Virus record (IMG/VR): IMGVR_UViG_3300020057_000027
Span: 100,107 to 164,106 of that record
Strand: one strand, 5' to 3'
DNA: 64,000 nucleotides
Source of the DNA: a virus
Positions 19,491 to 48,238 of this stretch are shown here, one piece after another. The notes under the pieces were generated by a model, which had not been told where the DNA came from, ran no database searches, and was given only the letters and a program-made list of their open reading frames with translations. A program made the position numbers and the translations under genes. Every line of letters begins with the position of its first letter. Position 1 is the first letter of the stretch.

Positions 19491-21575
19491 ATGACTCAGT
19501 TTATTGACTTATCTGGTTTAGGTATTATCTCAGAAGAAAACTGGGCTTGGGTTATTCGACCTATTGGTATTGGTCCACTATTAGTTGGTACGCCCGAACT
19601 TAATTTAACAATATTCACTCCTTCTATAGTTTCACAAGAAACTTTTGGTTATCATAGTGTTGGTAACATTACATTAAATTCTAGTATAGCTGATGCCAAC
19701 AATACGTTTGGTATTCCTAATATTAGTAATACTTCAAGTGTTCCTTTAATATCATCTCAAATATATTCTCAGCTTCCTAGTTTTGTTAGAGAAGATCATC
19801 CACATTTCATAAACTTCATGGAAGCATATTATGAATGGATGGAAAATTATAGAAATGTTCAATTTGATATAGCAAGATTAAAAACATATCAAGATGTTGA
19901 AACTAGTATTGATATTTTTACAGAACAATTCTTTAAAGAATTTTTAACTAATATACCAAGAGGTATTGTTGCTGATAAAGAAAATGTTTTAAAAAACATT
20001 AGAGAGTTCTATCGTGCTAAAGGAACAGAAAAGTCATATAAGTTCTTTTTCAGAATATTGTTTAATATAGATGTTGATTTTTATTATCCTAGAATAGACA
20101 TGTTGCGAGTGTCTGATGGTAAATGGATTCAACCAATTACATTGCGTATCAGATCTACTGTGGGTAATCCTTTTGATTTAGTCGGTAGACGAATTAGAGG
20201 ACTAAACAATAATGCTTCGGCGTTTGTTGAACAAGTACAATTCGTTCAAGAAGGTTTCTTAACTGTATATGAATTATTTTTAAATCGTTCGAGTATATCT
20301 GGTTTATTTGAAGGTGATGAAGTTATCAAAGCTGCGGATGTTGATATTGAAGGGGTAATTTATCCAATAGTAGATTCAATTAAAGTTGTGAGCGGCGGCG
20401 AAGGGTATTCAACCGGAGACCCTATATTGATTGGTGGGCCAGGCGTTGGAGCTACTGCTGTAGTTCAATCTGTTGGTAGTTTGGGTGCGATAAAGAAAGT
20501 TAAGATGACTGCTTTCGGAGCAGGATATACAAGTGCTCCACTAGTAACTGCTCCCGGAGGTACGGTAGTAGCATCATTAGAAGCAGTAATCGGCGCACAA
20601 ACTAAGTATCCCGGATTCTTTTTAAATGAAGATGGTCAAATATCCGCATCAAAATATATTCAAGACGGTAAGTATTACCAACAATTTTCTTATGTAGTAT
20701 TTGTTAATGAGTCTATAGAAAAATATAGAGACGCATTAAAGCGAATGATCCATCCTGCCGGTTTAGAGATGTTTGGTGGATTCAGATCTCAAGAATTGAT
20801 AGATGCTGGTGTAAACCTTTCTTCAAGATATGGACAGGTTGGCACTTCAATGCTTAGAATCCACGACCATTTTAAATTTGTTTGGGTGGTATTTGATATT
20901 AATAATCAACCATTGAATGTATTTGATAATGAACAGCTTGCTATACAGTGGTTAAAAGAGCTAGGAACCTTACCATACACCGAATATCTATCAACCGACT
21001 ATGTGGTGCTAGATGTAAATTTGAAAGTATTAGCTGTATTTGCTTCACAGATCGAAGCGCAAGACTGGTTGAACGATCACGAGTCTGAGTATCCAGGTAC
21101 ATTATTTCATATAAAAGAAAGAATAGACACTAGATTCAATTCTCAATATCTCCAAAGAAGAGATAGTAGACAAGTAAATCCATTTTATTTTGATCCTATA
21201 GATGCTCGTATTAAATCACAACAAACAGAGCTTATTTTAATCCACGATCTATATGAAGGTATTAATCAAGCCAAACTTGGACCTTCTTACCGTTCTATTG
21301 AGCGAGATAAATTCACATATAGACCATTTGAGAAAACCGATATTACTGGAGAGTTGAATGGTGTTAATGCTGGCTATTGGGGTATTCAAGGTGTTTTTAT
21401 ATCTCAATTTGCTAATTATCAGATAAAAGACTTTAAAGATATAACAGTAAAAGAGATGACAGAAAAACCTTGGACGAAGATAAATATAATGCCTGAACCT
21501 ATTGTTAGAAACAGTGACGGAACTAGCATTAACAGTTTAGAAAAGTTTGGAATAGCTGAAATCTCACACACTTAA
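19491..21575 (+). CDS. gp7: baseplate wedge protein, gp7-like
   Basis: QLP.FVRE.H..F..F.EAYYEW; FYRAKGT..SY..FFRILF; IQD..YYQ.FSY; HPAG..MFG; position between gp6 and gp8. Confidence 0.75.
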   Translation: MTQFIDLSGLGIISEENWAWVIRPIGIGPLLVGTPELNLTIFTPSIVSQETFGYHSVGNITLNSSIADANNTFGIPNISNTSSVPLISSQIYSQLPSFVREDHPHFINFMEAYYEWMENYRNVQFDIARLKTYQDVETSIDIFTEQFFKEFLTNIPRGIVADKENVLKNIREFYRAKGTEKSYKFFFRILFNIDVDFYYPRIDMLRVSDGKWIQPITLRIRSTVGNPFDLVGRRIRGLNNNASAFVEQVQFVQEGFLTVYELFLNRSSISGLFEGDEVIKAADVDIEGVIYPIVDSIKVVSGGEGYSTGDPILIGGPGVGATAVVQSVGSLGAIKKVKMTAFGAGYTSAPLVTAPGGTVVASLEAVIGAQTKYPGFFLNEDGQISASKYIQDGKYYQQFSYVVFVNESIEKYRDALKRMIHPAGLEMFGGFRSQELIDAGVNLSSRYGQVGTSMLRIHDHFKFVWVVFDINNQPLNVFDNEQLAIQWLKELGTLPYTEYLSTDYVVLDVNLKVLAVFASQIEAQDWLNDHESEYPGTLFHIKERIDTRFNSQYLQRRDSRQVNPFYFDPIDARIKSQQTELILIHDLYEGINQAKLGPSYRSIERDKFTYRPFEKTDITGELNGVNAGYWGIQGVFISQFANYQIKDFKDITVKEMTEKPWTKINIMPEPIVRNSDGTSINSLEKFGIAEISHT

Positions 21576-21612
21576 ATTAGTGCTATAAATATTACTAGAG
21601 GATAAAACTAAG

Positions 21613-23352
21613 ATGACCGCAATAATTAAAAATAGATTCAGAATACAGAACGCTAAAGACTTCTTAGAAAATCTTGTCGGTCATCCTAGAACAAGTGTTA
21701 TAGGTAACACAATCAATCTTACTGGTGTAACCGAAGCAGAAAGAATTGCAGATCTTCAAACTGAAATTGGTTCTCATGCTGTAGATAGAAATTTATATTT
21801 GTTTGTTGGTAGAGCTAGACCTTGGCCAACAGATCTTTTGAACGGAACTAATGAGTTGGCTCCACCTCTAGCTAAAGATACGATATCAGAAGAGTATCGT
21901 ATTTGGGATGCTATGTTAGGTTTAAAGAAAGTCACTGAAACTTATTCTTCTCTTGTTGTTCCTAGATTTGATTGGGACGCTACAGGTGAAACTGTATATA
22001 AACCCTTTGACGATCAAGATAAAGATCTATTCAATCATCCAACTACTGCTGAAATTGCTGATGGTAATCTTAATAGCTATACCGCAGGATCTTTTTATGT
22101 ATTGACTGATGAATATCATCTATTCAAATGTTTAGGTAATAATCTTTCAGCAAAATCTACAGTTAAACCACAAAAACCTTTAGCTGCTCCATTTATATTT
22201 GAGGGCTCAGATGGTTATAGATGGAAGTATCTAACAACAATTACTCCCGGCCAGGTAGTTAAATTTTTAACTGAAAGATGGATACCTGTAGTTCAACTAG
22301 CAGAAGATGATGGTAGTTCACAATGGTTGGTTCAACAGGCTGCCACTGAAGGTACTATTGATACTTTTATTATTGATAATAAAGGTTCCGGATATATTTA
22401 CGTTCATTCAGGAACACTACAGGGGTTTAGCGGAACCACAGGTTCTTTAGATTCTGGATTTTCTATTGTGGCCTCAGCATATGTTGGAGCACAGATTCAT
22501 ATAGTTTCTGGAACTGGAGCAGGCACAGTAAGAAACATTACATCATATGATGAAACTTTTGGTATTGTTACTGTAAATGTTGCTTGGTCTGTTGACGGAA
22601 GTTCTGTATATGAAATAACGCCAAAACTTACTATTTCAGGAAACGGAACAGGCGCTACAGCCAAAGCAGTTGTTGAAACTCTTGCTGGGCCTGACCAATA
22701 TAAAATAACAAAAATTATTTCCACTGCTGGTGGTTCTGGTTACACTTTTGCTTCTGTGTCTATTACTGGAGCTGGTGGTTCTGGTGCTTCAGTGAGAGCG
22801 CAGATAGCTGCTCCGGGTGGTCATGGTTCAGATATAGAAAAAGAACTTGGTGCTTTCTTTGCCATGTTGAATGTTAGATTGAAATATGAAGAAGGTGCTG
22901 GAGACTTTCCTATATCTAATGACTATAGACAAATTGGAGTAGTTAGAGATCTTAGAAACTTAGATGGTTCTTTAGCGACTGAAGATACTCGTATTGCTAC
23001 AAAGAAATTAAATCTAACTGGTGTTAGTCCTGGTTTGGGTGGCGATTTTGCTCCAGATGAAGATATCACTACTGGTGGAGCTACTGCTAAAGTTATAGAT
23101 TATGTTGCTACTGGTCCTGGAACAGGAACAATAACTTTCTTTCAAGATGAAATAACAGGTTATGCTTCATTTGCTGGTGGACAAGTGGTTAGTGGTTTAA
23201 CTAGTGGTGCTACAGGAACTATTGCTTTATCGGGAGTAATAAATGAAGAAATTAAAAAGAATGTTGGAGAAATCATTTACATAGAAAATCGTAGACCTGT
23301 TCTGCGAGCCCCTGACCAGATAGAAGATATAAAAGCTATTATAGAATTCTAA
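21613..23352 (+). CDS. gp8: baseplate wedge subunit
   Basis: MTAII...FRI.NA; FYVLT.EY..FKCL.N; DGY.WKY; NDYRQIG; GEIIYIENR......DQIEDIK.IIEF. Confidence 0.92.
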   Translation: MTAIIKNRFRIQNAKDFLENLVGHPRTSVIGNTINLTGVTEAERIADLQTEIGSHAVDRNLYLFVGRARPWPTDLLNGTNELAPPLAKDTISEEYRIWDAMLGLKKVTETYSSLVVPRFDWDATGETVYKPFDDQDKDLFNHPTTAEIADGNLNSYTAGSFYVLTDEYHLFKCLGNNLSAKSTVKPQKPLAAPFIFEGSDGYRWKYLTTITPGQVVKFLTERWIPVVQLAEDDGSSQWLVQQAATEGTIDTFIIDNKGSGYIYVHSGTLQGFSGTTGSLDSGFSIVASAYVGAQIHIVSGTGAGTVRNITSYDETFGIVTVNVAWSVDGSSVYEITPKLTISGNGTGATAKAVVETLAGPDQYKITKIISTAGGSGYTFASVSITGAGGSGASVRAQIAAPGGHGSDIEKELGAFFAMLNVRLKYEEGAGDFPISNDYRQIGVVRDLRNLDGSLATEDTRIATKKLNLTGVSPGLGGDFAPDEDITTGGATAKVIDYVATGPGTGTITFFQDEITGYASFAGGQVVSGLTSGATGTIALSGVINEEIKKNVGEIIYIENRRPVLRAPDQIEDIKAIIEF

Positions 23353-23387
23353 TATAAATAGAATACAGACTTTGGTAATAAGAGAAT

Positions 23388-26300
23388 ATGACTAAAATAG
23401 ATTTAAATCAATCACCATATTTTGATGATTATAATGAGAATAAAAAATTCTATAAAATCCTATTCCGTCCAGGAAGAGCAGTTCAAGCAAGAGAACTAAC
23501 ACAAATTCAAACTGCTTTACAGAAGCAAGTTGAAAGAATGGGAAGACACATCTTTGAACAGGGTTCACAGGTTCTTCCAGGCTCTAAAGAAGGAGTTCGT
23601 TATATTAACAATAACGGCTTCATTAAAATTCCAAGAACCTCATATGCTAATACCTTAACTGAACTTAATACTTATTGGTTAGGAAAAGAAATAATTAGTG
23701 CTAGTGGTGTTCGTGCTAAAGTAATCGGGGTTAGAGAAGCAGACACTATTAATGAAGCAAGATTATATCTTAACTATCTTAATGCTTCTACTAGCGGTTT
23801 AGTTACTTCTTTTGTTTTGGGTGAAATCATACAAACAGATGAAATAGTTCCAATTACAACTACTATTCCTGCTACTCAATATTCTATCGGTTTAATATCT
23901 TCTGTTATAGTCGAAGAGGGTGTATATTTCTTTGATGGTAATTTTATTCTTGTTGATCAACAAACTGTTTTTATTACTCCGCCAGACACCGAAGATCAAG
24001 CAACATGGAATAACCAACCAACGGCTTTGGTTGGACTTAAAATAACTGAAAGTGTTATAACATCCGATGACGATGAAACGCTATTAGATAATGCGTTGGG
24101 TTCACCAAACTATGCGGCTCCAGGAGCCGACAGACTTCATATATCTGCTGATTTAATTCAAGCTGCTTTAAACACTGACGATTCGGATTTTATTTCTCTT
24201 CTTAGAGTTGTTGATGGTGTTGTTCAAGCAAGAGTTATACGAACTGAATATTCAGTCCTTGAAGATACATTAGCTAGAAGAACAAATGATGAAAGTGGAG
24301 ACTATAGTGTAGTACCATTTCAAATCCAGATTAGAGATTTCCTAAGAAATAATATTAATAATGGTATTCATAATGAAAAGGAATTTCATTTTGATACTCA
24401 ATTAGAAGCTCAAAAAATATCAATATCTACTTTTGGTTTAGCCGAGCCAGGAAATGCAGTGCTTCATCCTGATTTTATTTCAGTGTGGGTTCCTGGAACT
24501 TCATATAATACTGCTGGAGATGCTAGTTCATTTATTCAACTATGTGATGATCGATTAAGTATCAAAGTTGATCCAGGTAAAGCATACGTTAAGGGTTATG
24601 AAATTGAAAAACTTTCTACTACTATAATAGATGTTGTTAAAGCAAGAACATTACGATATAGAAATAATAAAACTATATCTACTCCTCTTGGAACATTTTT
24701 ATATGTTAAGAAAATGTATGGAGCATTAACTCTTGAGACATATGACACTGTTGAACTTTATGATCGTCCTATAGTAACTGGAGGTGCATCTTCTGGAAAT
24801 AAAATAGGCACTGCTAGAGTATTAGCCGTAGAATTTTTCAGTGGTGTTAATGGTAGTGTTGATGGAGTATATCGCCTATTTGTTTTTGATATGAAAGCCG
24901 ATCCAGGCAAGTCACTTAGACAATTAAAATCTATATACTCACCAAATCCAACTTTTACTTGTGATTGTGTAACTCAAAATTTTAGATTAACTGGTTCTGT
25001 TGCTAAATTACCTAATCAATTAATTGGTACGGGAACATCTTGGAAAAACGATGAACTACAAAGACTACAAGCAGGAGATTTTGTTCAAGTAAGCCAAGGG
25101 CCAACAGCTACTATCTATAGACTCCTTTCTACTCCATCAAACGATAATGTGTTAGATGTTACCCCTAATCCAGCAGGAGCACTTTGGCCTGAGGGTTCTA
25201 CTATAGATTATTCTTTTGTGTCTCCAGAAACCAATTCACAAAATTCGGGATTATTATTCAGACTACCAGATGATGTTGTATACACACTTCATGGGGGTTC
25301 ACAAGGTTTTGTTGATACTTCTCTAGCTGGAATTGATACTGTATATACTTCACGTAGAGTTGTGGGTAATGGAGTTGTTCCTGTATCTGATGAACTACAA
25401 TTTACTTTATCTGATCCTAATGAAGAGTTTGAAGATTTTAATACTTCTGGATATGCAGTAATTAATCTTGGTGGATTATCTGGTGATTGGTTAGAACTTA
25501 TTCCATATGTTGCAGGAAATCCTTCTGCTGGAAAATGTGAAGTTCAAGCACTTGGAGCACAAGTAACATTTCACTTAAATAATACTGATACGCTTTCTGC
25601 TGGTCTTAATGGGTTTTATGTAATCACTCCTGTAATACATAGTGGAAATTTTGCTTCAAAAGAAAGATCTAAAACTTTAGTTAAAGGTTCTTTTCCTCTT
25701 GGAGTATACTCTGGTGAAAGTGTAGTTAGTGCAGGCTCGGATGTATCAGAAATTTCTCTTGGTAGAGCAGACGTACTTAGAATAACTAGAGTTGTAGAAT
25801 CTCAAAATTATACGTCAGTGCCAAGCGATTTAGAAGTTCTTCCTCCAACAGATAGAGATATTACTGGTCTTTATATTTTAGATGATGGTCAAAGAGATTA
25901 TTTTTATGATATCGCTAAAGTAGTATTACGTCCCGGAGTAACCAGACCAAGAGGACGAGTAAGAGTAGAATTTGATTATTTTCAACATGGTACTTCTGGT
26001 AATTATTTCTGTGTAGATTCATATCCATTCAGAGGTCCTGGTAAGCAAATGGACTATGAAGAAATTGGCATATATGTTTCTGCTGATGGTACAGAATATG
26101 ATTTAGCTTCTGCTGTAGATTTTAGACCTAGAGTAATAGAGCCTGGTGGTATTGGTTCTGGTTTTGCTACTACTCTTGAATTACCAAAAGAAAATTTTAG
26201 ATGTGATTATCACTTCTACGAAGGACGTATTGATAAACTATTCTTAGATAAGAGTAGTAAGTTTCTTATTAAGTCAGGAACTCCTGATGTTAAACCTCAA

Positions 26301-29300
26301 GCTCCAGATGAACCAGAAACAGGAATGGTAATCTATGCTTTAGATTTTGCTCCATATACTGCTTTGCCGGCTTCGGTATTTCCTAGATTCCGAGATAATA
26401 AGCGTTATACAATGCGCGATATTGGTAAACTTGAAAAGAGAATTTCTAATCTCGAATACTATACTACTCTTTCTTTACTTGAAGTAAATACAAAAGATCT
26501 TAAGATCACTGATGCTCAAGGTAATGATAAATTTAAGAATGGTTTCTTAGTTGATAACTTCGGAACATTCAATGGCGATTTAGGTAGTGCTGACTATAAA
26601 GCTGCCGTTGATCGTACTGCTGGCACAGCTAGACCTATTATAGTTCAACAAAATGCTGGACTATTTGAAAAGGTATTACTAGAGCCAAATACTATTCAAC
26701 AAAATGCACTAAGAGTAGCTGCCAGATATCAAAAGACTGGAGATATATACACTCTTCCTTACACTCCAAATAAACTACTTGAACAAAAGAAAGCAAGTAA
26801 AGTAGCTAATGTAAATCCTTATGCTGTATTCACATTTGTTGGAGCAGTAGATATTACTCCTTGGTCTGATGAATGGAGAGAAACTAAAACTGTTGAACCA
26901 TTAAATGTTGTTGATTCCGGTGCGTATGAAGCTGCACAGAAATCATTCGGACCGACAGGCACAACTATTGATTATACTTCTACTACACAGCAATGGACTG
27001 GTAGCAAAACAGAATCAACTAAGATTGGAGAAGTTATTAAGGTTGGTGGTCATGAATTCTTTGATGATCTTCCTAAGAAAGAAAAAAAGAAACTTAAGAA
27101 TCAAATAAAGAAAGGCAAAGGTAAAGTTGTTATTCCAGAAGGTTATGTAAATTCTGGTGAAGAAGTTCCTGCTGGCCGTAGCACAGAAATTGCTGATAAG
27201 TTTAGAACTACAACAACTATTACTGGCGAACAAATCACACAAACTTTCACTTCAACTTTTGTCGATCAAGGTTTCTCAAATCCAGTTTCATTTGGTTCGA
27301 GAATTATTGAAACTGCAATGGCAGAGTTTATGCGCGAGCGAGAAATAGTTTTCAGTGCCAAAGCTTTTATGCCATTTGCTAGATTGTATCCTTTCTTTGA
27401 TGATGTTGATGTTGCTGAAGACTGTAAGCCAGATGGTGGAGCTTATGGTAACGATCTTATATGCGACAGTAAAGGAAGACTTAAAGGTACTTACAAAATT
27501 CCTAATAGAGAAGGAAAGAAATTCAAAGTTGGTGATCGTATATTCCGACTAACTACCTCTCCAAACAATCAAAAGAATCCACCTCCTGCTTCTGCTGGTG
27601 AAGGTAAATATACTGCACGTGGATGGATTGATGTTCAACAAGAAACAACCTATTCAACAAGATTGTTTACTGTTGACCGAGGCAGCACAACAAGCTCAAG
27701 TGATATTTCTTTACAAACTTCTGAAACATTCTCAGAAGGTAAAGCGTGTCCAAGAGATCCTATAGCACAGAGTTTCTTCATTTACGAAAATGGCGGATGT
27801 TTTATCACGGCCGTAGATGTTTTCTTTTATAAGAAGCCAACAGGAAGTTCTCAACCTTCAATTACATTACAGATTAGACCTTTAGATGAAGGTGGTAATC
27901 CATCTAATAAAGTTCTTCCGTTCGGTGAGATAATTAAAGAAGCGGTTGAAATAGTAACTAATAAAGTAGATCTGATTAATGGAACTCTAACTGTTGTGGG
28001 TTATGATAACTCCGATTCTCAGATTGATGCTACTACTGATAATTCTGGCCCATGGCCTTCAACTAATGTTACTAATTCTTCTGGTAGAGCAATAACTTCT
28101 GGAGTTCCAGTAACTCTTGGTACGGTTCCTTCTGATGATATGATACCAACAAGATTTACTTTTGAAAGTCCAATATATCTTTCACAGAATGAAAGTTTTT
28201 GTTTTGTTTTAATATCTGATAGTAACGAATATAATGTTTGGGTTGCTCAATCTGGCCCAGACGTAACAAGCAGAGAAGGACTTGATGCTTTCAGAGATGA
28301 GGGTGAAGTTAATACTGAAATTGGAACTAATACGCCAATATTAAAAGACCCATATATTCAAGGTATCTTCTTTAAGTCACAAAACGGAATATCTTGGTCT
28401 GCCGATCAAACTATTGATATAAAGTTCAGCATTTGGAAAGCAGAATTTAATACTGCTGTCAATGGTGAAATAGAATTTGTTAATGATGAATTAGCATTAA
28501 AGAAACTTACTTTAGATCCTATTGAAACAAAAACTGGATCAAGCAGAGTTAGAATACTTCATCCTAATCATGGTTTAACTACTGATGCGCCTATAAGTAA
28601 AGTAGTATTTCAACCTAATTATGACATTACTCTTACTGGTGCATTAAGTAGTGTAGGAACAACTGTAACAGGATCTGGAACTCTATTCACTAGCGAACTT
28701 GTTGTTGGAAGTTTTATTCAACATCCCGTAACTGGAGAACAAAAGAAAGTAACAGCAATTGCTAATGCTACTTCTTTAACTATTGCGAGTGCGTTCACTT
28801 CATTACAATTAGCATCAAGCACTAATGTACAAGGAACAACCTTTGCTCTTCCTGACGCTTCTTCATTAAATGGTTTAGACGCTTCGACATTATTTAACTA
28901 TGTTGGACATAGTGTATTATTAACAGAAATGGATTACTACATTATAGATCTTGGAACAAATGCCACTGTTGATGGACGTGTGGGCGGTTCGCAAATATTG
29001 GCGTCTGAAAATAGAAGATTTGAAGAATTAATGTTATTGACTACTCCATTAGCATTACCACAAACAGATATTACTTGGAACGTTCAAACAACTTCTTCTG
29101 CTGGTGTTAATGATTTAATAACACAACCATATGAAGTTCTTCCTAGAAAAAATCTAACACCTAACGAAAAAATTATTTTTGATAAGCCAATGCAGATCAG
29201 TTCATATATTAATGAACATAATAGTGGAGATGTTCCTCCTGGCCCATCACAAGTATCTACTTCTGGTTTAGGTGATAAGAAATCATTAAATATTCGTGCT

Positions 29301-30416
29301 ATATTAAAGAGTTCAAATAAAAATCTATCTCCTGTTATTGATAGATCTCGTATGAGTGCGTTCCTACTTTCACATAGATTGGATGATCCTCGTGGTATTA
29401 GTGGTTCTGGAGTTGTTGCATCACAGATTGTGAATGATGTATTTGATAATTATCAGTGCTTACCTACTACTGTATCTCCAATTGTTGCTACTACTGCAAG
29501 CCTGTTTTGGTTTACTACATCTACTGGAGCACTATCTGGACAGTCTTCAGGTGCGTCAGGAAGCATAACTGTTACAGGTGATATAAATGCAAAATACTTA
29601 TCTGAATTGAAAGTTGGCTCTAAGATTAAAGTAAGTTCTTCTTCTGAAGAAAGAATAGTTAGAACTATTGCAAGTGATACTTCATTAACTGTTGATGTGG
29701 CATTTGGGGTAACATTTGGACCTGAAGTGATACATACTGATCCAGCTAATGTTAAAATTAAAACTGCTGACCCTAGTGCAGCAAAACATATTAGCAAACT
29801 AGATATTGGTAAATATTTGACTATTTCTGGTGCAACTGGAACAAGAAGCTTTACAGATAGATTAATTACTTCTGTAGAATATAGTCCAGATAATACTGTT
29901 GTTGATTCAAATTTGGGAGCTCCTAAACTAGCAGAAATTGAAGTTGATTATAGAACATTAACTGCCGCTACTATCGAAACAAACGCTATAACTATAACAC
30001 AAAAAGATAGATATATTGATGAAATAGCTCCATCTGGTGGAAGCTGTGCCGCTAAGTATGTTTCTAAGAAATTAGTAGTACCAAGAGAATCAAATTCTCT
30101 TAAGGTTATGTTTGATGCTCATAGACATAATTCGTGTCAATTAGAACTTTATTATAAACTTGAGCCTGTAAATTCTGATAAGCACATAGATAAGCTTAAC
30201 TGGATTAAAGGTGAGTTTAATCTTGATATTAATAGTGTATTACAGCCCGCTATTCCAGATGCTAATGACGGTCTTAATGAATTTAATACTTATGAAGCTA
30301 CTTTGAATGATCTGCCTGGTTATGTTGGAGCCCAAGTTAAAGTAGTTATGAGAGGTGGTAATCCTGCAAGACCTCCACTTATCAGAAACTTCAGATTAAT
30401 TGGTTTGGATGAATAG
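23388..30416 (+). CDS. large virion structural protein (VrlC-like/DUF4815-type)
   Basis: SPYFDDY...K.FYKILFRPG.AVQARELTQ.Q; APGADR; KRYTMRDIGKLEKRI.NLEYYT.LSLLE; DP.AQSF. Confidence 0.9.
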   Translation: MTKIDLNQSPYFDDYNENKKFYKILFRPGRAVQARELTQIQTALQKQVERMGRHIFEQGSQVLPGSKEGVRYINNNGFIKIPRTSYANTLTELNTYWLGKEIISASGVRAKVIGVREADTINEARLYLNYLNASTSGLVTSFVLGEIIQTDEIVPITTTIPATQYSIGLISSVIVEEGVYFFDGNFILVDQQTVFITPPDTEDQATWNNQPTALVGLKITESVITSDDDETLLDNALGSPNYAAPGADRLHISADLIQAALNTDDSDFISLLRVVDGVVQARVIRTEYSVLEDTLARRTNDESGDYSVVPFQIQIRDFLRNNINNGIHNEKEFHFDTQLEAQKISISTFGLAEPGNAVLHPDFISVWVPGTSYNTAGDASSFIQLCDDRLSIKVDPGKAYVKGYEIEKLSTTIIDVVKARTLRYRNNKTISTPLGTFLYVKKMYGALTLETYDTVELYDRPIVTGGASSGNKIGTARVLAVEFFSGVNGSVDGVYRLFVFDMKADPGKSLRQLKSIYSPNPTFTCDCVTQNFRLTGSVAKLPNQLIGTGTSWKNDELQRLQAGDFVQVSQGPTATIYRLLSTPSNDNVLDVTPNPAGALWPEGSTIDYSFVSPETNSQNSGLLFRLPDDVVYTLHGGSQGFVDTSLAGIDTVYTSRRVVGNGVVPVSDELQFTLSDPNEEFEDFNTSGYAVINLGGLSGDWLELIPYVAGNPSAGKCEVQALGAQVTFHLNNTDTLSAGLNGFYVITPVIHSGNFASKERSKTLVKGSFPLGVYSGESVVSAGSDVSEISLGRADVLRITRVVESQNYTSVPSDLEVLPPTDRDITGLYILDDGQRDYFYDIAKVVLRPGVTRPRGRVRVEFDYFQHGTSGNYFCVDSYPFRGPGKQMDYEEIGIYVSADGTEYDLASAVDFRPRVIEPGGIGSGFATTLELPKENFRCDYHFYEGRIDKLFLDKSSKFLIKSGTPDVKPQAPDEPETGMVIYALDFAPYTALPASVFPRFRDNKRYTMRDIGKLEKRISNLEYYTTLSLLEVNTKDLKITDAQGNDKFKNGFLVDNFGTFNGDLGSADYKAAVDRTAGTARPIIVQQNAGLFEKVLLEPNTIQQNALRVAARYQKTGDIYTLPYTPNKLLEQKKASKVANVNPYAVFTFVGAVDITPWSDEWRETKTVEPLNVVDSGAYEAAQKSFGPTGTTIDYTSTTQQWTGSKTESTKIGEVIKVGGHEFFDDLPKKEKKKLKNQIKKGKGKVVIPEGYVNSGEEVPAGRSTEIADKFRTTTTITGEQITQTFTSTFVDQGFSNPVSFGSRIIETAMAEFMREREIVFSAKAFMPFARLYPFFDDVDVAEDCKPDGGAYGNDLICDSKGRLKGTYKIPNREGKKFKVGDRIFRLTTSPNNQKNPPPASAGEGKYTARGWIDVQQETTYSTRLFTVDRGSTTSSSDISLQTSETFSEGKACPRDPIAQSFFIYENGGCFITAVDVFFYKKPTGSSQPSITLQIRPLDEGGNPSNKVLPFGEIIKEAVEIVTNKVDLINGTLTVVGYDNSDSQIDATTDNSGPWPSTNVTNSSGRAITSGVPVTLGTVPSDDMIPTRFTFESPIYLSQNESFCFVLISDSNEYNVWVAQSGPDVTSREGLDAFRDEGEVNTEIGTNTPILKDPYIQGIFFKSQNGISWSADQTIDIKFSIWKAEFNTAVNGEIEFVNDELALKKLTLDPIETKTGSSRVRILHPNHGLTTDAPISKVVFQPNYDITLTGALSSVGTTVTGSGTLFTSELVVGSFIQHPVTGEQKKVTAIANATSLTIASAFTSLQLASSTNVQGTTFALPDASSLNGLDASTLFNYVGHSVLLTEMDYYIIDLGTNATVDGRVGGSQILASENRRFEELMLLTTPLALPQTDITWNVQTTSSAGVNDLITQPYEVLPRKNLTPNEKIIFDKPMQISSYINEHNSGDVPPGPSQVSTSGLGDKKSLNIRAILKSSNKNLSPVIDRSRMSAFLLSHRLDDPRGISGSGVVASQIVNDVFDNYQCLPTTVSPIVATTASLFWFTTSTGALSGQSSGASGSITVTGDINAKYLSELKVGSKIKVSSSSEERIVRTIASDTSLTVDVAFGVTFGPEVIHTDPANVKIKTADPSAAKHISKLDIGKYLTISGATGTRSFTDRLITSVEYSPDNTVVDSNLGAPKLAEIEVDYRTLTAATIETNAITITQKDRYIDEIAPSGGSCAAKYVSKKLVVPRESNSLKVMFDAHRHNSCQLELYYKLEPVNSDKHIDKLNWIKGEFNLDINSVLQPAIPDANDGLNEFNTYEATLNDLPGYVGAQVKVVMRGGNPARPPLIRNFRLIGLDE

Positions 30417-30417
30417 C

Positions 30418-30657
30418 ATGAAAACTTCTTTAGTTGAAAATAATCCACAACTACGTAGAGATTTGAATACTGGTTCAGTGATTAATATAGACGAAAATGG
30501 TTATAGAAATCATAAGAAGCAAAAAGCTCTTAGTAAACAAAAAATAGAGTTAGAACAGGCCAAAGAAGAGCGAATAAATAGATTAGAGACAGACGTATCA
30601 GAATTGAAAACTGGTATAAATCAAATTTTAGAGATATTGAAAAATGCCAATTCTTAA
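30418..30657 (+). CDS. conserved small coiled-coil protein following the VrlC-like gene
   Basis: L.RD..TG.VIN.D...Y...RINRLE.DVSELK. Confidence 0.8.
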   Translation: MKTSLVENNPQLRRDLNTGSVINIDENGYRNHKKQKALSKQKIELEQAKEERINRLETDVSELKTGINQILEILKNANS

Positions 30658-31048
30658 AGTACCAGACACAGACAGTTTTGACTTGTGGAGACAGAAGACT
30701 AATCTTCTTGCTCTTCAACAAGGAGACTTTCAACGTCTTATTGCTCCATTGGTTTATCCTATTTCTGGTTCGGTAACTTCTTTTGGTGATAGCTTAGTTG
30801 GTGTTGGAACAAACTTTGTTACAGAACTTATTGTAGGTAGTCGTGTTAGAGATATTGGAACTTTTGCAGAAAGAACTATTATTGAAATAACTTCTGCTAC
30901 TACTGCTAAAACTGACACTGCTTTTACTCCCGCATTGGCAGCTTCACAATTAGCAACAATGGATATTATAACAGCACTAAATTCTACGTACCTAGCAATA
31001 GGAACAGTACAAAGAAATATTTTAATCCGCGCAATAGCGATGAGTTAA
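30644..31048 (+). CDS. virion structural/fibre-anchor protein
   Basis: N-terminal V..TDSFD.WRQKTN anchor motif plus a beta-barrel module shared with gp18. Confidence 0.75.
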   Translation: MPILKVPDTDSFDLWRQKTNLLALQQGDFQRLIAPLVYPISGSVTSFGDSLVGVGTNFVTELIVGSRVRDIGTFAERTIIEITSATTAKTDTAFTPALAASQLATMDIITALNSTYLAIGTVQRNILIRAIAMS

Positions 31049-38447: not shown

Positions 38448-38475
38448 CTAAATATTGGAAAAGAAGATTTAACAA

Positions 38476-41400
38476 ATGGCAAGAATTCGTGGTATAGGAC
38501 AGATTGACAGAAACACTAATCTAGTGTCTGATCAATTAATTGGCGTAGAGTCTGGGACTCTTGATACCCTCATTTCAACTGACGGCACGCAAGTTCGTTT
38601 TGTTAAAGAAGGTACTGGAGCTTTAGCTTACTTTGAATCCAACAAACTTCTTTGGACTTCTAGTGCTGGTTTAACGCACGTTGTTGGAACTAATTCTGTT
38701 GATGGTGCTGATACTAGAACACTTCTTTTAAGTTCTTCTGATAGTGCTAACGCCGCTAGAGGTGCTTTCATTACTCTTGCTGGTAATGAGGCTTCAGTAA
38801 ATCCTAGTTCTATATTTCTTACTAGTGGCAATGCTACTAACTCTTTAATCTCTATTAACGCAACTGGAAGTAATGGTACTATACAATTACATTCCTCAAA
38901 TATTTTGCGATTAACACTTACTTCAGGTGGTTCATTAGAATATAATAACAACATGACTATTCATGCGGCGTCTGTTGATGGTGCTGATAATCAAAGAATA
39001 GTTATTAATGGTGGCGGTAATACTGGTGGTATAGATCCTGCTAGAGGAGCTGGTTTACAACTTTCTGGTAATGAAGAATCTAATCCTGGCTTAGCACAGA
39101 TATTTTCTGGTGATGCAGTTGGAAGTAAAATACAATTCTTTACTCCTGGAAATTATCCAATTAGATTTTGGACTAACTCAACACAAAGATGGGACATAGA
39201 CGGCTCTGGTCATTTAGTTCCTGCTAGTGCTTCAGCATATAATTTTGGTAGTGCTAGTTCTCCTGTCAACAATGTTTACGCAACAAGTATTGGTTTATTT
39301 GCTGCATCAAGTTTTTCTATATTTACTAACAACATTAATAGATGGCAAGTAAATTCTACTGGAAGTTTTATTCCTGGAGCCAGCAATACTTACGATATTG
39401 GTACTGATACATCAAGAGTTAGTCGCATCTATGCACAAAATGAATTAAGAGTTGATGCTATTAGTAAAGCTGATGCTGATGGAGTTATGTCTTTCGCTTC
39501 GGGTACAGGAGCATTACCATATATTAAATTACAAGGAACAACTGGTAATAAAATTACTGCTGGAACTTCTGATGGTGCTGATAATACATATGTAAAATTG
39601 GCGGGTGGTGGAGATGTAGGAAGTTCTCGTGGTGCTACCATAGAATTATATGGTAATGAAGCTCCATCTTCTAACAACGGAAAAGTTTTAATTCAAGGTG
39701 GACAAGATGCTAATGGAACAATACAACTTCAAACCAATAATGCTTCTGCTGGAATTAATTTAACTACTGGTGGTAACAGTGCCAATATAACTCTTGAAGG
39801 AAATTCTGGTGGTGCAAAATGGTTATATGTTGCTAACGATGGTGAATTAGAATTTACTGGAACAACTACCGGCTTTATTGGTACTACAACAAGTGATGGA
39901 GCAGATAACGCATCACTATATCTTTCTGCCGGCGGTGGCGGCGCGGGAACAAACGCGAGTTTGCCAACTAGAACTGGTTCTCTAACACTTAGAGGTAATG
40001 AAAATGCTTTTGGTGGTCAAGTATTCCTACAAGGTGGAGCTGTTGCTTCAGGTAAAATAAGATTACAAACCAATCACGCAACACCAACTATTGATATTGA
40101 AGCAAATACTTTAGTTACTTGGTCATTCAATAGCACAGGACAACTAGTTCAAAATGCAACCAATGGCGATAATATAATCATTAACCGTAATGGTAAAGGT
40201 ATATTCCATGGCAATAATGCTATGGACTTGATTTTTGGTGATAGCACTCTCGGAGCTTTCATTGTTGCTAGTGGTAGTACAGTAAGCAGTGAAATGTTAA
40301 TTTCTACTGGCCCAACGGTTTCTGGAGCTGCTTTATATCTAAGAGCGCAAGGCGCAACTGCTCCTATATTATTACAAGCTGGAGGTGCTACTACTAGATG
40401 GTCTGTATTATCTTCAGGTCATTATGTTCCTTTTGTCGGCAGCACATATGATATTGGAACTACTTCATTAAGAGTTAGAAATCTTTATGTAGATAATATA
40501 ATTGGAGGTGCTGGTGGTGGCTCATTAAGCACATTAGCTAATGATACATTCTTAAATGGTAGAAACTTTGCTAATAGTGCTGATGTTGGTTTAATTAAAT
40601 TAAGTGTTGCTGATGATACTACTATTAGTTCAGCTAGTGCTAAGAAAATTAAATTAATGAATATTGCTGGTTCTGCTTATGTTGGCACATTTGATTATGT
40701 TAATCAATCTTTAACCCTTGCTGCCACTGCTGGTGTTAGTAGATTAATTCAAACTTCTGCCACTATTGATTCTCGTTGGACACTTGATGTTGCTAACTCA
40801 CGATCAATAGTAGGAAATACAACTTCTCATGATTTATATTTTAATACAACCAATTTAAATAGATGGTATATTGATACCACAGGAAGACTTGCGGAAGATC
40901 CTACAAATGGTAATGGTATTCTATTACAAAATCCTACAAGTGGTATAGAATATAATAGTGCTTCAGGCGATCTATATTTCGGTTCTATACAGTCTAATGA
41001 TCTTAGATTCTATACTAATAATAGTAATAGATGGAGAATAAAAAATACTTCAGGTAACTTAGAGCAAGATGTAACTAACGGCGGCGATCTTGTATTTAAT
41101 AAGTCTTCTGGAATTATTCGACAAGGCACTGTTGATGCGACAGATACTAACTCTATTTCTCTAGTCGGCGGTGGTGCAGAAGCGACTAGCAGAGGCTCAT
41201 ATATTAGAGTTTCTGGTAATGAACATGCAGATTTAGGAAAAGTAATAATTCAATCGGGTGCAGTAGCCGGCGCAGATATTAGAATGGACGTTGGCTCTAA
41301 TGCTAACATCTATCAACTTTCTATCGGTAATACACCGGTAGATCAAAATTCTGGCACATTAAGAACTTTCACTACTAGAGATCGTCCAACCGTGGATGGC

Positions 41401-43395
41401 GTGAACTTCATATTCAATGCAAAATATCCAGATATTACTTCCACTGTAACTCGTTATCAAAAAGTTGCAGAGTTTAGAGGTTATGATCCTAAAATAAATG
41501 TTGGTATAACTGATTCTGGTTATAGAATTGGTATAGCAGTTGAGCATTACTTCAATACAGCAAATTTTGCTGGAACCCTTGCTGAACAGTATGGTACATG
41601 GTCGAGAGTTGGACTCCATACTCTTAATCCAACCGGCACAATATCTAATTCATATGCACTATATGCAGAAACTTTAAATTTTGGTATAGCTGGCTCTATC
41701 ACTAATGCTTGGGGTATCTTTCAAGCATCAAACGGTGGCGGGAATACTAAGAACTATTTTGAGGGTCGTGTTGGTATTGGTGTTGCGCCTGCGACCGGAT
41801 TCTTTCTCGATGTTGCTGGAGCATTACAAGTTGCCGGTAACATTCAGTACACTCCTTCTATATTTTCTATTGCTGCAAATACTGCTGATGGTGCAGACAA
41901 TAAGAAAATTATAATTGGTGGTGGCGGTGCTGCTGGATTTGCACAAGTAGGACGTGGCGCATATCTAGAACTTGGCGGCAACGAAAGTAATTCTGGTGGT
42001 GCAACACTTTCAACTGGTGACGCTGGCGGACATCTATATCTCTACACTCGTAACAGTGCTGCTGATATTTACTTTAATGCAGGAGCAATCGGAAACTGGA
42101 AAGCATCTGGTGCAGACGGCGACCTAGTATTCAGTGGTTCAACTTCAAGAATTCATGCTGATACTGCTGATGGCGCAGACACAAAAAGACTATTACTTTG
42201 TGGTGGTGGAATTCAAGGTGATTCTAGAGGCGGTACAATATATCTCTACGGAAATGAGCACGGAAGCACCGGTTCAGTAGAAATATTAGCAGGCGGTGCA
42301 GGTTCAATCTATTTTGAAACTCTAAATGCTGTTCAGTGGCAAGTTCAAAATGCTGGACATTTAGTACCTGGCTCAAATAATACAAAAGATATTGGTAATT
42401 CTAGCTTAGGTATACGCGACATTTACTTGCGCGATCTTTTAGTTAGAGGTGCAATCACTGGCACTGCAACTAACACACTTAATATCACAACTGGTACTGT
42501 TGATGGCACAGACAACATGAGATTAGAAATATCTGGTGGTGGTGATATTGGTTCTTCTCGTGGAGCTTATATTTCTCTTTTTGGTAATGAAGAAGCTAAT
42601 ACGGGAAGAATAGATCTTGTTGCCGGTAACGTTTCTGGTGGACATATTACTATATCAACTGCCGGAGCAGAGAGATGGAGAATAATAAACTCATCAAATT
42701 CTAACTTACAGTTCAGCACAACAAACGGTTATATTTTCGCTACTACTTCTGATGGCTCGGACAGTGCTAGACTTATTCTATCGGGTGGCGGCAACGTTTT
42801 AGATACTGCTAGAGGCGGTTACATTACTATCAATGGTAATGAACATGCTGGACTTGGTGGTATTCAAATACAATCTGGAATTGGTACGGCTGGTGTTGGT
42901 ATTAACATTCAAGTTAATAGCACTACCGGAGAACTAAATCTTGGCACTAATGCTACAACAAGATTAGCTATAGATGCTAATGGTAGAACACAACATAGAG
43001 CATTTACTGGCTACACACCTTCAGGTAAATTTGAAATTCCCGTAGTAGCAAATACAACTAATGCGACTACAGCTAATCTTTATACTTTAACATTAGCAGA
43101 TAATACTACCTACATATTCACTGTAACTCTTGGCGGAAGATTTAATAGCACTACAGCCAAAGGTATTGGTGGAAAACTTAAGTTCACTGTCTATAGAAAC
43201 AATGCTGGAGCTGCTGTTATTGCTTCAGACTTGGGAGGAAGAATTAAAGAAATAGAAACCTATGGTTCTCCGGGATATGATTTTGATGTAGATGTTTCAA
43301 GTAATGATATAAGAATCAGAATTACTGGAGCGGCGGCAGAAACAGTTTCTTGGATTGGTAATATAGAATACTTAGCGGTTTCAACGGCAACATAA
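38476..43395 (+). CDS. long modular tail fibre/spike with nine DGAD...GGG...RGA.I.L.GNE modules
   Basis: repeats visible in the translation; late promoter at 38448. Confidence 0.85.
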   Translation: MARIRGIGQIDRNTNLVSDQLIGVESGTLDTLISTDGTQVRFVKEGTGALAYFESNKLLWTSSAGLTHVVGTNSVDGADTRTLLLSSSDSANAARGAFITLAGNEASVNPSSIFLTSGNATNSLISINATGSNGTIQLHSSNILRLTLTSGGSLEYNNNMTIHAASVDGADNQRIVINGGGNTGGIDPARGAGLQLSGNEESNPGLAQIFSGDAVGSKIQFFTPGNYPIRFWTNSTQRWDIDGSGHLVPASASAYNFGSASSPVNNVYATSIGLFAASSFSIFTNNINRWQVNSTGSFIPGASNTYDIGTDTSRVSRIYAQNELRVDAISKADADGVMSFASGTGALPYIKLQGTTGNKITAGTSDGADNTYVKLAGGGDVGSSRGATIELYGNEAPSSNNGKVLIQGGQDANGTIQLQTNNASAGINLTTGGNSANITLEGNSGGAKWLYVANDGELEFTGTTTGFIGTTTSDGADNASLYLSAGGGGAGTNASLPTRTGSLTLRGNENAFGGQVFLQGGAVASGKIRLQTNHATPTIDIEANTLVTWSFNSTGQLVQNATNGDNIIINRNGKGIFHGNNAMDLIFGDSTLGAFIVASGSTVSSEMLISTGPTVSGAALYLRAQGATAPILLQAGGATTRWSVLSSGHYVPFVGSTYDIGTTSLRVRNLYVDNIIGGAGGGSLSTLANDTFLNGRNFANSADVGLIKLSVADDTTISSASAKKIKLMNIAGSAYVGTFDYVNQSLTLAATAGVSRLIQTSATIDSRWTLDVANSRSIVGNTTSHDLYFNTTNLNRWYIDTTGRLAEDPTNGNGILLQNPTSGIEYNSASGDLYFGSIQSNDLRFYTNNSNRWRIKNTSGNLEQDVTNGGDLVFNKSSGIIRQGTVDATDTNSISLVGGGAEATSRGSYIRVSGNEHADLGKVIIQSGAVAGADIRMDVGSNANIYQLSIGNTPVDQNSGTLRTFTTRDRPTVDGVNFIFNAKYPDITSTVTRYQKVAEFRGYDPKINVGITDSGYRIGIAVEHYFNTANFAGTLAEQYGTWSRVGLHTLNPTGTISNSYALYAETLNFGIAGSITNAWGIFQASNGGGNTKNYFEGRVGIGVAPATGFFLDVAGALQVAGNIQYTPSIFSIAANTADGADNKKIIIGGGGAAGFAQVGRGAYLELGGNESNSGGATLSTGDAGGHLYLYTRNSAADIYFNAGAIGNWKASGADGDLVFSGSTSRIHADTADGADTKRLLLCGGGIQGDSRGGTIYLYGNEHGSTGSVEILAGGAGSIYFETLNAVQWQVQNAGHLVPGSNNTKDIGNSSLGIRDIYLRDLLVRGAITGTATNTLNITTGTVDGTDNMRLEISGGGDIGSSRGAYISLFGNEEANTGRIDLVAGNVSGGHITISTAGAERWRIINSSNSNLQFSTTNGYIFATTSDGSDSARLILSGGGNVLDTARGGYITINGNEHAGLGGIQIQSGIGTAGVGINIQVNSTTGELNLGTNATTRLAIDANGRTQHRAFTGYTPSGKFEIPVVANTTNATTANLYTLTLADNTTYIFTVTLGGRFNSTTAKGIGGKLKFTVYRNNAGAAVIASDLGGRIKEIETYGSPGYDFDVDVSSNDIRIRITGAAAETVSWIGNIEYLAVSTAT

Positions 43396-43396
43396 T

Positions 43397-44491: not shown

Positions 44492-44492
44492 T

Positions 44493-44696: not shown

Positions 44697-44747
44697 TGGC
44701 TACAAGTTTTAATAAATAATGTAAGATCATTACTTAGGAGACTAATC

Positions 44748-44978
44748 ATGGCAAGACAGAGCGTAGCTATTACACCGAATAACGGTGCAGATCTAGCAAG
44801 ACCCATTACTTCACTGTATGTTGGGGGCGCTGGTGACATCACACTTGAACTAGTCAAAGATGTGCCAGGTGGTACTCAACTTAAATCAGTTCCTGCTGGT
44901 ACATACCTAGAGAATCTAGTCATTAGAAAAATATACGCCACTGGAACAACTGCCACATTTCTAGTGGGGTTCTTTTAA
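44748..44978 (+). CDS. head-spike base protein, RcGTA Rcc01079-like
   Basis: AITP....DL.....LYVGGAG.I..........VPAG..L.....I.ATGTTA..LV matches the recalled family pattern; own late promoter and AGGAG RBS. Confidence 0.75.
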   Translation: MARQSVAITPNNGADLARPITSLYVGGAGDITLELVKDVPGGTQLKSVPAGTYLENLVIRKIYATGTTATFLVGFF

Positions 44979-45481: not shown

Positions 45482-45483
45482 CC

Positions 45484-46446: not shown

Positions 46447-46487
46447 TAGGGCATAAATACCCTATAGCAACAATTTAAGGTGGAACC

Positions 46488-47345
46488 GTGGGAACCAATC
46501 GTTACTTCAATCTATTTAATCCGCGATCAGAACAAAATCTGGTTGACGATCTCAATCGTGAGGCCATACAAATACATGGCATAGATTGTGTGTACCTTCC
46601 AAGATCAAACCAAAAAATAGATCTAGTATTAGGTGAAGATGTTCTCTCTAAATTTGATGACGTATATGATATAGAAGTGTACATTAAAAACGTAGATGGC
46701 TTTGAAGGTCAAGGAACTTTAATGAACAAGTTCGGGATTGATATCAAAGATCAGATCACTTTAACTATTTCACGCACAAGATTTAACGATGTAGTAGGAA
46801 CAGAATTAGAAAGACCAAGAGAAGGTGATTTAATTTACTTTCCTCTAAACAATGCACTATTAGAAATTAGATATGTAGAACATGAAAGTGTATTTTATAA
46901 TCTTGGCGAAAGATATGTTTACGAATTAAAATGTGAACAGTATGCTTTCTCACATGAAGAAGTTAAAACTGGAGTTGATGCAATTGATGAAATTGCTGAT
47001 ATAGCGGCATCAAGTATATTCTTAAAACTTGGAGTTGGTGTTGGTACTTTTCAACAAGGCGAAATTGTTTATCAAGGTTTAGATCTATTAGAAGCAGATG
47101 CAAAAGCTACTGTTATTCAAGCAATCTTTCCTGCTGGACAACTTCAAGTTAAAGATATTTTTGGTGTGTTTGATCCTACTAACGGCCCAGTTAAAGGTGT
47201 TAAAAGTGCCGCTTCATATTCTCTAACATCTCTTAATACTCAAGCTATTAGTGATCCATTAGCAGAGAATGTTCCTATTCAGACAGAGAGTGATTCTATT
47301 ATAGATTTCACTGAGAACAATCCATTTTCTGAGGATGACTTCTAA
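46488..47345 (+). CDS. gp14: neck protein
   Basis: EQ.LV.DL..E.IQ..G.D..YLPR; RP.EGDLIYFPL; DF.E.NPF. Confidence 0.95.
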   Translation: MGTNRYFNLFNPRSEQNLVDDLNREAIQIHGIDCVYLPRSNQKIDLVLGEDVLSKFDDVYDIEVYIKNVDGFEGQGTLMNKFGIDIKDQITLTISRTRFNDVVGTELERPREGDLIYFPLNNALLEIRYVEHESVFYNLGERYVYELKCEQYAFSHEEVKTGVDAIDEIADIAASSIFLKLGVGVGTFQQGEIVYQGLDLLEADAKATVIQAIFPAGQLQVKDIFGVFDPTNGPVKGVKSAASYSLTSLNTQAISDPLAENVPIQTESDSIIDFTENNPFSEDDF

Positions 47346-48238
47346 TGTTTGGCAATATATTCTACCATAGAACAATGAGAAAAGTTGTTTCAGTGTTTGG
47401 TTCACTGTTCAATGATATCTCTATTGTAAGAAGAGACGCACAAGGTAAAGAGATCAAGCGTATTAAAGTCCCTTTGGCTTACGGTCCAAAAGAAAGATAC
47501 TTATCAAGAACATCTAAAGAGCCAGATTTCAATCAAGGTTATACAATAGAACTTCCACGTTTAGCTTTTCAAATTGTTTCATTCAATTATGATGGAGCAA
47601 GAAAACTAAACACAATGCATAGAAATAAAAAGGCTATTGCAGGCGATGGTTCACATGTGAACAGACAGTACAATCCAGTGTCGTACAAGCTCGGCCTAGA
47701 GCTTTACGTGCTTGCTAAGTACATAGATGATGCTAACCAGATCATAGAACAAATACTTCCTTGGTTCACTCCTGACTATACTGTAACTATTAAAGCTATA
47801 CCAGAAGTAAATCTTATTGATGACGTTCCAATCACTCTCCAAGCTGTTTCTATGGCTGATAACTATGAAGAAGATTGGCTAACAAGAAGAGATATTATTT
47901 GGACTCTAAATTTTGAAGTTAAGACTTTATTCTATGGGCCAGTAAAACCAGAAGATGTTATTACAAAAATACAAACAGATATTCTTGTTGGGCCTATTGG
48001 AAATTCTGTTCAAGATCAAATAGCAAGAAACGCAACACCTAGATCGGCACGACATTTAATTGAAGCTCTTCCTGGAGAAACTTTTGAAGATGATTTTGGA
48101 TTCAGTGAAAGCTATACTGAATATACAGACAATAAGAAGTTTAATCCTGAGACTGGATTAGATGAAGACATTGTATTAAAAATAAAAACTGAAATTTTAC
48201 ATACTGGCGAGCAATTTGGGAAACCAAAAATTATTTAA
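47345..48238 (+). CDS. gp15: tail sheath terminator
   Basis: MFG..FYH...RK.V..FG.LFN; VPLAYGPK; LPR.AF; QI.EQILP.F.P. Confidence 0.95.
   Translation: MFGNIFYHRTMRKVVSVFGSLFNDISIVRRDAQGKEIKRIKVPLAYGPKERYLSRTSKEPDFNQGYTIELPRLAFQIVSFNYDGARKLNTMHRNKKAIAGDGSHVNRQYNPVSYKLGLELYVLAKYIDDANQIIEQILPWFTPDYTVTIKAIPEVNLIDDVPITLQAVSMADNYEEDWLTRRDIIWTLNFEVKTLFYGPVKPEDVITKIQTDILVGPIGNSVQDQIARNATPRSARHLIEALPGETFEDDFGFSESYTEYTDNKKFNPETGLDEDIVLKIKTEILHTGEQFGKPKII

Follow-up and report, generated by a model that had tools for sequence, protein, structure and literature searches.

A 20-residue fibre repeat at the ends of a gp7-like baseplate protein in a T4-like virus: candidate docking tags for an accessory fibre

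In T4-type baseplates, gp7 serves as the hub that ties in the peripheral fibre proteins, and fibres and tailspikes dock via gp7 and gp10; in phages of the CBA120 and G7C kind, branched tailspike adaptors carry modular N-terminal docking domains that make the fibres exchangeable. Here we describe, in the final 64 kb (64,000 nucleotides, referred to as the window) of the single-contig virus record G000 (164,106 bp), a gp7-like baseplate wedge protein that carries single copies of a 20-residue unit at both of its ends, and a tail terminator, gp15, that ends in a degenerate form of the same unit. The unit is the one that a giant protein of this T4-like myovirus repeats in tandem, and the terminal copies, which we refer to as tags, are candidate docking points for the accessory-fibre genes (the cassette) to which the giant protein belongs. 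The contig ends share an overlap of 106 nucleotides, and the record is classed as complete with direct terminal repeats; no close cultured relative was found by megablast. A single-protein scan of IMG/VR gave no matches, and relatives were collected by alignment-based scans.

The closest described apparatus is the tail wing of mycobacteriophage Bxb1. According to PMC12646305, which cites the Bxb1 structure paper (Freeman et al., Cell 2025), the wing base gp30 binds the tail spike, and the arm gp31 and the brush gp33 bind only gp30; Bxb1 without gp30 is viable, a close relative lacks genes 30-35, and terminal tags on resident tail proteins are not described there. The wings are thus accessory, and the T4-like relatives of our virus likewise vary in having the cassette. 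A further likeness is that a homologue of the arm gp31 (PDB 9d93) is encoded directly after the giant protein. There are clear differences, however. [quoted passage not shown] Furthermore, Bxb1 gp33 is a low-complexity glycine-rich sequence, whereas the partner of the arm here is a LamG domain with an array of 20-residue repeats, and the units are absent from the tail region of Bxb1 (record 17000-31000, genes 22-35).

A second set of relatives is found among mycobacteriophage minor tail proteins (Cosmo/Wildcat gp45, Marvin gp88, Kumao gp32, McProf gp72), which belong to the same repeat family, phrog_13352. Cosmo and Marvin also have the same gene order, with the repeat protein followed by the arm homologue. 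However, Cosmo gp45 carries five units at the N-terminus of a receptor-binding-type protein, whereas here some 103 units lie behind a LamG domain and there are tags on gp7 and gp15.

An original prediction, made from the window's sequence, had held that the giant protein's repeat is grafted onto both ends of the gp7-like protein and onto the C-terminus of gp15, and every peptide that it quoted as a tag is found where it had been placed. For a genome-wide scan, a position matrix was built from 87 units of the giant protein only and applied to the six-frame open reading frames of the whole 164-kb genome, with 50 shuffled proteomes as control. Outside the giant protein, exactly two matches exceed 8 bits, and both lie on the gp7-like protein: residues 40-59 (TIFTPSIVSQETFGYHSVGN) score 28.4 bits and residues 674-693 (NSDGTSINSLEKFGIAEISH) 13.8 bits. 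The best scores of the shuffled proteomes have a mean of 6.3 bits and a maximum of 16.3 bits, and at 13 bits or more the expectation is 0.06 matches per proteome. The gp7 tags thus beat (N-terminal) or approach (C-terminal) the best that shuffled controls produce. The terminal units are as follows; the second was also scored with a hidden Markov model (HMM).

19512-19577, + strand: N-terminal variant unit of the gp7-like protein, SGLGIISEENWAWVIRPIGIGP, residues 8-29, in which W replaces the glycine of FG
19596-19667, + strand: N-terminal canonical unit, ELNLTIFTPSIVSQETFGYHSVGN, residues 36-59, 28.4 bits with the matrix and 19.0 bits with the HMM
19686-19739, + strand: N-terminal half-unit, IADANNTFGIPNISNTSS, residues 66-83, just before the conserved core
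21510-21572, + strand: C-terminal unit, NSDGTSINSLEKFGIAEISHT, residues 674-694, 13.8 bits
48170-48235, + strand: C-terminal tail of gp15, IVLKIKTEILHTGEQFGKPKII, residues 276-297, a degenerate unit

The degenerate N-terminal units to which the prediction had pointed turn out to be real, because they are conserved in an alignment of close homologues. The variant unit is kept as GIxSEENFxWxIxP in the homologues P0007, P0008, P0009 and P0011, the canonical unit is followed by SVGNITL, and the half-unit, which is sub-threshold with the matrix, is kept as NQFG(I/V/F)P(S/N)(I/V). It was likewise borne out that the tags lie outside the conserved cores. The phage gp7 homologues begin to align at about residue 76-90, and in gp15 the PF16724 domain ends at residue 261. 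In an AlphaFold2 model computed from a 73-sequence alignment, gp7 residues 1-68 and nearly all of residues 672-694 have a predicted local distance difference test score (pLDDT) below 50, and the core is confident. The gp7 tags are thus modelled as disordered, as would be expected for peptides that fold only upon binding a partner.

The identity of the gp7-like protein is well founded. It matches PF23786 with 53.2 bits (cut-off 27) and phrog_17744, 'baseplate wedge subunit', with an E-value of 7.6e-60, and its model is matched by Foldseek with probability 1.00 to T4 gp7 (5iv5_BJ, E 4e-8; 5hx2_A, E 1.5e-7) and to Klebsiella phage KP1 (9f4a_A0, E 9e-12); the flexibility of the multi-domain model keeps the TM-scores low. 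The gene order gp25-gp6-gp7-gp8 is present, with PF04965, PF21379 and PF09215 on the flanking genes, and a relative has the same order.

We then ask how far the tags are kept in other genomes. When 119 other gp7-like proteins were scored with the giant-only matrix at a threshold of more than 5 bits, 39 matches fell in the N-terminal region ahead of the core, 16 at the extreme C-terminus and one in the interior, such that 55 of 56 are terminal. The interior makes up 85% of the residues, and shuffled sequences give 0.005 matches per protein. N-terminal tags occur in 23 of these homologues, C-terminal tags in 16 and both in 11, and the number of N-terminal units ranges from one to at least six (P0014). 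One gp7-like protein of 1873 residues, from G001, has internal units besides its N-terminal tags. Many homologues, including some from complete genomes, are entirely without tags. In the C-terminal tags, the motif S-x-E-x-F-G is almost invariant among proteins with only 40-70% identity in the core, and this constancy shows the tags to be under selection. Judging from these alignments, the tags are old, conserved, position-specific and accessory, and have been inherited within a gp7 clade in which their number varies.

That the giant gene had recently donated units to gp7 or gp15, by grafting or gene conversion, was considered and rejected. The nucleotide identity between tags and giant units averages 45-50% and reaches at most 65%, whereas units within the giant gene are up to 95% identical to each other, and codon sharing between tags and units is no higher than between units. 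The word 'grafted' in the prediction, in the sense of recent copying at the DNA level, therefore does not hold.

For gp15, the picture is more mixed. The protein itself is clear (PF16724, 226.5 bits against a cut-off of 25, spanning residues 6-261). With the giant-only matrix, its tail in this genome (TEILHTGEQFGKPKII) scores -4.0 bits, which is not significant alone, whereas 14 of 120 gp15 homologues exceed 5 bits (maximum 18.1), a level that 0.17% of shuffled sequences reach. All 14 matches lie at the C-terminal tail in the same register, e.g., KPSGIQSKEKFGIAKIS and SPTAIESEESFPIPQVK. Because clear units occupy the same position in these homologues, the tail in the window can be taken as a degenerate copy of a genuine unit; the proposed gp15 unit thus stands for the homologues and falls short of significance in the genome for which it was proposed. 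In more distant relatives the tails grade into an SKVGRPKLS form, many relatives have a KEKIYxxTIK form, and gp15 proteins of 265-277 residues stop at NPxTGxDE and lack the tail. The gp15 tags are the rarest of all, and are found in the closest relatives of the window, L100 and L099, the latter of which has a LamG-repeat gene at the corresponding position.

As assembled, the giant protein has 2469 residues; behind a lectin-like LamG domain (residues 100-242) it carries about 103 units of 20 residues each (103 HMM domains were counted). The consensus of the units is YIQPSSINSEEAFGTHQLNQ, the general pattern of the unit is P-S-x-I-x-S-x-E-x-F-G, and its conserved core I-x-S-x-E-x-F-G is present in the tandem units. 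Both contig ends fall inside the giant gene and the circular join crosses the repeats, such that the true number of units may differ. The protein matches phrog_13352 with an E-value of 6.6e-70. In a public protein library the unit family has 3269 cluster representatives (E up to 1e-3), and unit matches were found in 80 IMG/VR contigs of 4 kb to 424 kb as well as in mycobacteriophage minor tail proteins. No Pfam family covers the repeats, and we thus flag a large family, of more than 3000 clusters, that is without a Pfam model. In a low-confidence model of a repeat segment (pLDDT 64), each unit forms one long beta strand. A fold search of the PDB with this model gave no significant match (top rows the curli-type amyloids FapC and CsgA, probability at most 0.21), and a profile search of the PDB with the repeat gave chance-level matches only, to RTX adhesin repeats.

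Two observations on array proteins from other records are added here. In G014 (G014:C1:14332-18953, - strand), the gene for a 1219-residue protein with 30 units is immediately preceded by that for a 322-residue LamG protein bearing about three, i.e., a short and a long array protein in tandem, and one unit is nearly identical in both. In L100, whose gp15 is 72% identical to that of the window, an open reading frame of 73 residues with two units follows directly after the gp21 protease gene (L100:14070-14291). Its second unit resembles the last unit of the giant protein (GGPWVVN vs GNHWVVN). The frame encodes either a minimal array or what the assembler left of a collapsed repeat.

A link to a described apparatus comes from the next gene. 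Its product matches the 'Tail wing arm, gp31' of Bxb1 (9d93_Ra in PDB 9d93, E 1.1e-22) and phrog_644 (E 1.3e-49). Its identity is 71% with Cosmo gp46 and 61% with Marvin gp89, each of which is encoded after a minor tail protein that bears units (gp45 in Cosmo, gp88 in Marvin). Of the repeat-bearing records, all 9 that were downloaded have the arm gene, usually right beside the repeat gene and never more than about 2 kb from it, as do 27 of 28 others (36 of 37 overall), the sole miss being a fragment that is 11% complete. Seven T4-like records that have no repeats lack the arm gene too. Arm identity reaches 72% across unrelated phages, which is far above the conservation of the array proteins. 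Cassettes with a gp31-like arm range from 40-kb siphoviruses and T4-like myoviruses to records of about 380-420 kb. By its gene content, the giant protein thus belongs to a widespread mobile accessory-fibre cassette that is known in outline, consisting of a unit array and a gp31-like arm, and the new element here is the conserved single-unit tags on resident tail proteins.

A gene for a 118-residue protein follows the arm gene in every arm-bearing T4-like record (G000, G001, G011, G018, G048, G051, G065 and L399). As a fibre-tail adaptor like gp77 of podophage GP4, its product is no more than a lead, since the match to PF23148 is sub-threshold (22.6 vs 27 bits) and that to PDB 8jou_D is not significant (E 0.26). 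In L396 (G048), L397 (G051), L398 (G065) and L399 (a JGI contig of 140 kb), the arm and 118-residue genes lie between the gp21 protease gene and the scaffold/capsid genes with no adjoining array. Arm and array thus need not occur together in T4-like records, and it looks, from this gene order, as if the array had been inserted upstream of a resident pair of arm and 118-residue genes.

Single terminal units are also found beside array genes in two complete, siphovirus-like genomes that are unrelated to our virus. In G022, a 143-residue protein carries one strong C-terminal unit (17.9 bits; G022:C1:20268-20696, - strand), and in G025 a 140-residue protein does so too (18.9 bits; G025:C1:20284-20703, - strand). 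The two proteins have no similarity to each other or to the 118-residue protein and no match in Pfam, and the G022 protein, the one searched against PHROGs, has none there either. It looks as if the same design, a folded part with a terminal unit, had arisen independently, as would be expected of a docking tag.

In this context, it is of importance whether tags, arrays and arm occur in the same genomes. The T4-like records that bear on this are the following.

G000 (complete): gp7 tagged at N- and C-terminus; gp15 tail degenerate; about 103 units; arm present
G001 (92% complete): gp7 with N-terminal and internal units; gp15 tail, none; 154-residue protein with 4 units; arm present
G018 (44% complete): gp7 tagged at the N-terminus only; gp15 tail, none; 509-residue protein with 17 units; arm present
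G048 (36% complete): gp7 with weak N- and C-terminal tags; gp15 tail of the SKVGRPKLS type; no array in the 8 kb upstream of the arm gene; arm present
ENA contig of 109 kb (putatively pairing gp7 P0014 with gp15 P0160/L102): gp7 with six N-terminal units and a C-terminal unit; gp15 tail, none; array present and cut by the contig end; no arm seen
G011 (complete, 167.8 kb): gp7 untagged; gp15 tail, none; LamG protein of 1292 residues with 38 units; arm present
G051 (64% complete): gp7 untagged; gp15 tail, none; no array near the arm; arm present
G065 (37% complete): gp7 untagged; no array near the arm; arm present
G052-G055 and G057 (93-100% complete): gp7 untagged; no arm

All four tagged T4-like records with sufficient sequence (G000, G001, G018 and G048) have the arm; the other tagged ones are uninformative fragments, none more than 47% complete. 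The arm is missing from five untagged records of 93% completeness or more and from fifteen less complete untagged ones. The expectation that tags occur only in genomes with the system thus met with no counter-example of the kind that would refute it.

What, then, could the tags do? They may be the virion-side attachment points of the accessory-fibre apparatus, a reading that we favour over any single other one while putting it at somewhat short of an even chance. An exposed unit, either in an array or as a terminal tag, would be captured by the arm and/or by strand addition to the sheet of the array, and this capture would fix the appendage to the baseplate and perhaps also to the upper end of the tail. 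In place of the absent wing base of the Bxb1 type, the anchors would be the gp7 tags and, weakly, that of gp15; another anchor would be needed because no gp30 homologue was found in the complete genome. The arm suggests itself as the partner of the unit because it is far more conserved than the array proteins, and because the S-x-E-x-F-G unit is the sole feature that the arrays have in common. G048, with weak tags and no array in the 8 kb that precede its arm gene, hints that the tags may bind the arm protein and not the repeats. The geometry of the repeat model, with one strand per unit, would permit strand addition. Both the binding of the tags and the identity of their partner are inferred from these patterns; a complex prediction of gp7 residues 1-90 with an eight-unit segment of the giant protein scored 0.00, without controls, and is counted neither way.

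The mechanism envisaged has precedents outside phages. In chaperone-usher pili, with their donor strand, and in curli, where CsgB nucleates CsgA, a short strand or repeat copy completes or templates the beta structure of another protein. The proposal for the tags is alike by analogy only: there is no kinship with these systems in sequence or in demonstrated structure, and strand exchange would be hypothetical here. The tags also differ from the docking elements of T4, CBA120 and G7C, in that they are disordered 20-residue peptides homologous to the fibre's own repeat rather than folded adaptor domains, and that the candidate element is present on the tail terminator as well. If docking is true, the density of the gp7 termini and of the gp15 tail should touch the arm or the array in T4-like phages of uncultured hosts. 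Terminal tags of a single unit would be a simple and evolvable way for a mobile kit to attach to a new virion, and a 20-residue peptide could then be used as a handle to attach or exchange host-range appendages in engineered phages.

Several observations weigh against docking. In G011 the cassette (array, arm and 118-residue protein) is present with untagged gp7 and gp15, from which it follows that tags are unnecessary for the use of the cassette. Arrays also occur with untagged gp15 in L101 and L102, the arm occurs with neither arrays nor tags in G051, G065 and Bxb1 itself, and G048 has the arm and weak tags, whereas the 8 kb preceding its arm gene contain no array. Our own genome has a degenerate gp15 tail, and the repeat, which resembles no solved structure, has an uncertain fold. 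Finally, the records compared for co-occurrence are few and share phylogenetic history, and many of the tagged ones are fragmentary. Hence, of the docking proposal made in the original prediction, it stands that the tags are real, terminal and selected, and that they have not been seen in an informative record without the arm gene, but an untagged relative uses the cassette all the same, and the external stay spanning from baseplate to neck that it had envisaged is not supported.

In a more general form, docking by terminal units could be a plug-and-socket code, by which a mobile cassette attaches to unrelated virions via a single terminal fibre unit on resident proteins or small adaptors. The arm or the array would capture the unit by beta-strand addition, and in our virus the tags on gp7 and gp15 would anchor a fibre with some 100 units to the baseplate and secure it at the upper end of the tail. 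We consider so general a code doubtful.

The alternatives to docking are, taken together, about as likely as docking itself. The one that survives best is that the terminal units are autonomous mini-arrays, which would act, e.g., as a weak adhesin for host surface polymers or as a short flexible spacer and would be unlinked to the giant protein or the arm. The variable number of N-terminal units on gp7, up to at least six in P0014, and the internal units in G001 resemble a small appendage of this kind, and Cosmo gp45 carries its five N-terminal units ahead of a large globular part. The unit family is also very large and architecturally free (3269 representatives), and the G011 array works without tags. 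However, a lone 20-residue unit at the last residues of gp7, gp15 or a 140-residue protein is unlikely to fold or to bind a ligand alone, and the tags are modelled as disordered. Mini-arrays would also leave the strict restriction to termini unexplained, and the arm gene is present in every informative tagged record. We therefore hold this explanation to be unlikely.

Zippers within the tail are a further alternative. On this view, the tags would hold the tail itself together: those of gp7 would bind adjacent wedges or other proteins of the baseplate, that of gp15 would bind the neck or the final sheath ring, and the likeness to the giant protein would be that of a generic strand-pairing motif. 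Many relatives build the gp6-gp7-gp8 baseplate and gp15 untagged, however, which marks the tags as accessory, and the S-x-E-x-F-G motif is common to the mobile cassette of unrelated phages and found on small cassette-adjacent siphovirus proteins as well. In contractile tails, sheath subunits are known to exchange strands with one another and with the terminator, and the 11 homologues with both N- and C-terminal tags could pair them between adjacent wedges. The grading of gp15 tails into conserved non-unit forms (SKVGRPKLS, KEKIYxxTIK) also suggests a tail-intrinsic role. On balance, zippers appear rather improbable to us.

Chance likeness or non-functional relics, chiefly for the gp15 tail here with its -4.0 bits (about nine six-frame positions reach 0 bits or more, as in shuffles), are very improbable as a general explanation and excluded for the gp7 tags, which exceed (28.4) or nearly exceed (13.8) every shuffled proteome and whose homologues keep units at the same termini.

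The genes in the range of the finding are all on the + strand, and lie in the following surroundings. The matrix scan found the 20-residue unit to be absent from the 2342-residue DUF4815 protein and the 1639-residue fibre.

upstream of the gp7-like gene, + strand: gp5, gp25 and gp6 (gp6 at 17688-19487)
19491-21575, + strand: gp7-like baseplate wedge protein, 694 residues, between gp6 and gp8
21613-23352, + strand: gp8
23388-30416, + strand: DUF4815 protein, 2342 residues, directly after gp8
after the DUF4815 protein, + strand: collar-domain fibres
38476-43395, + strand: glycine-/serine-rich fibre of 1639 residues, then an S74-chaperone protein
directly upstream of gp15, + strand: neck protein gp14 (PF11649, 146 bits)
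47345-48238, + strand: gp15, tail terminator / sheath stabiliser, 297 residues (PF16724)
after gp15, + strand: terminase subunits (gp16-like and gp17), sheath and tube
53481-55589, + strand: T4-type portal gp20 with an intein (PF14890 at residues 342-509, inside the Portal_T4 domain)
after the portal, + strand: gp21 protease
57552-64000, + strand: giant repeat protein, which continues at the start of the record (G000:C1:1-1067)
G000:C1:1083-1490, outside the window: Bxb1 gp31-like arm, 135 residues, directly after the giant gene
G000:C1:1519-1875 (L213:1519-1872), outside the window: 118-residue protein, after the arm gene

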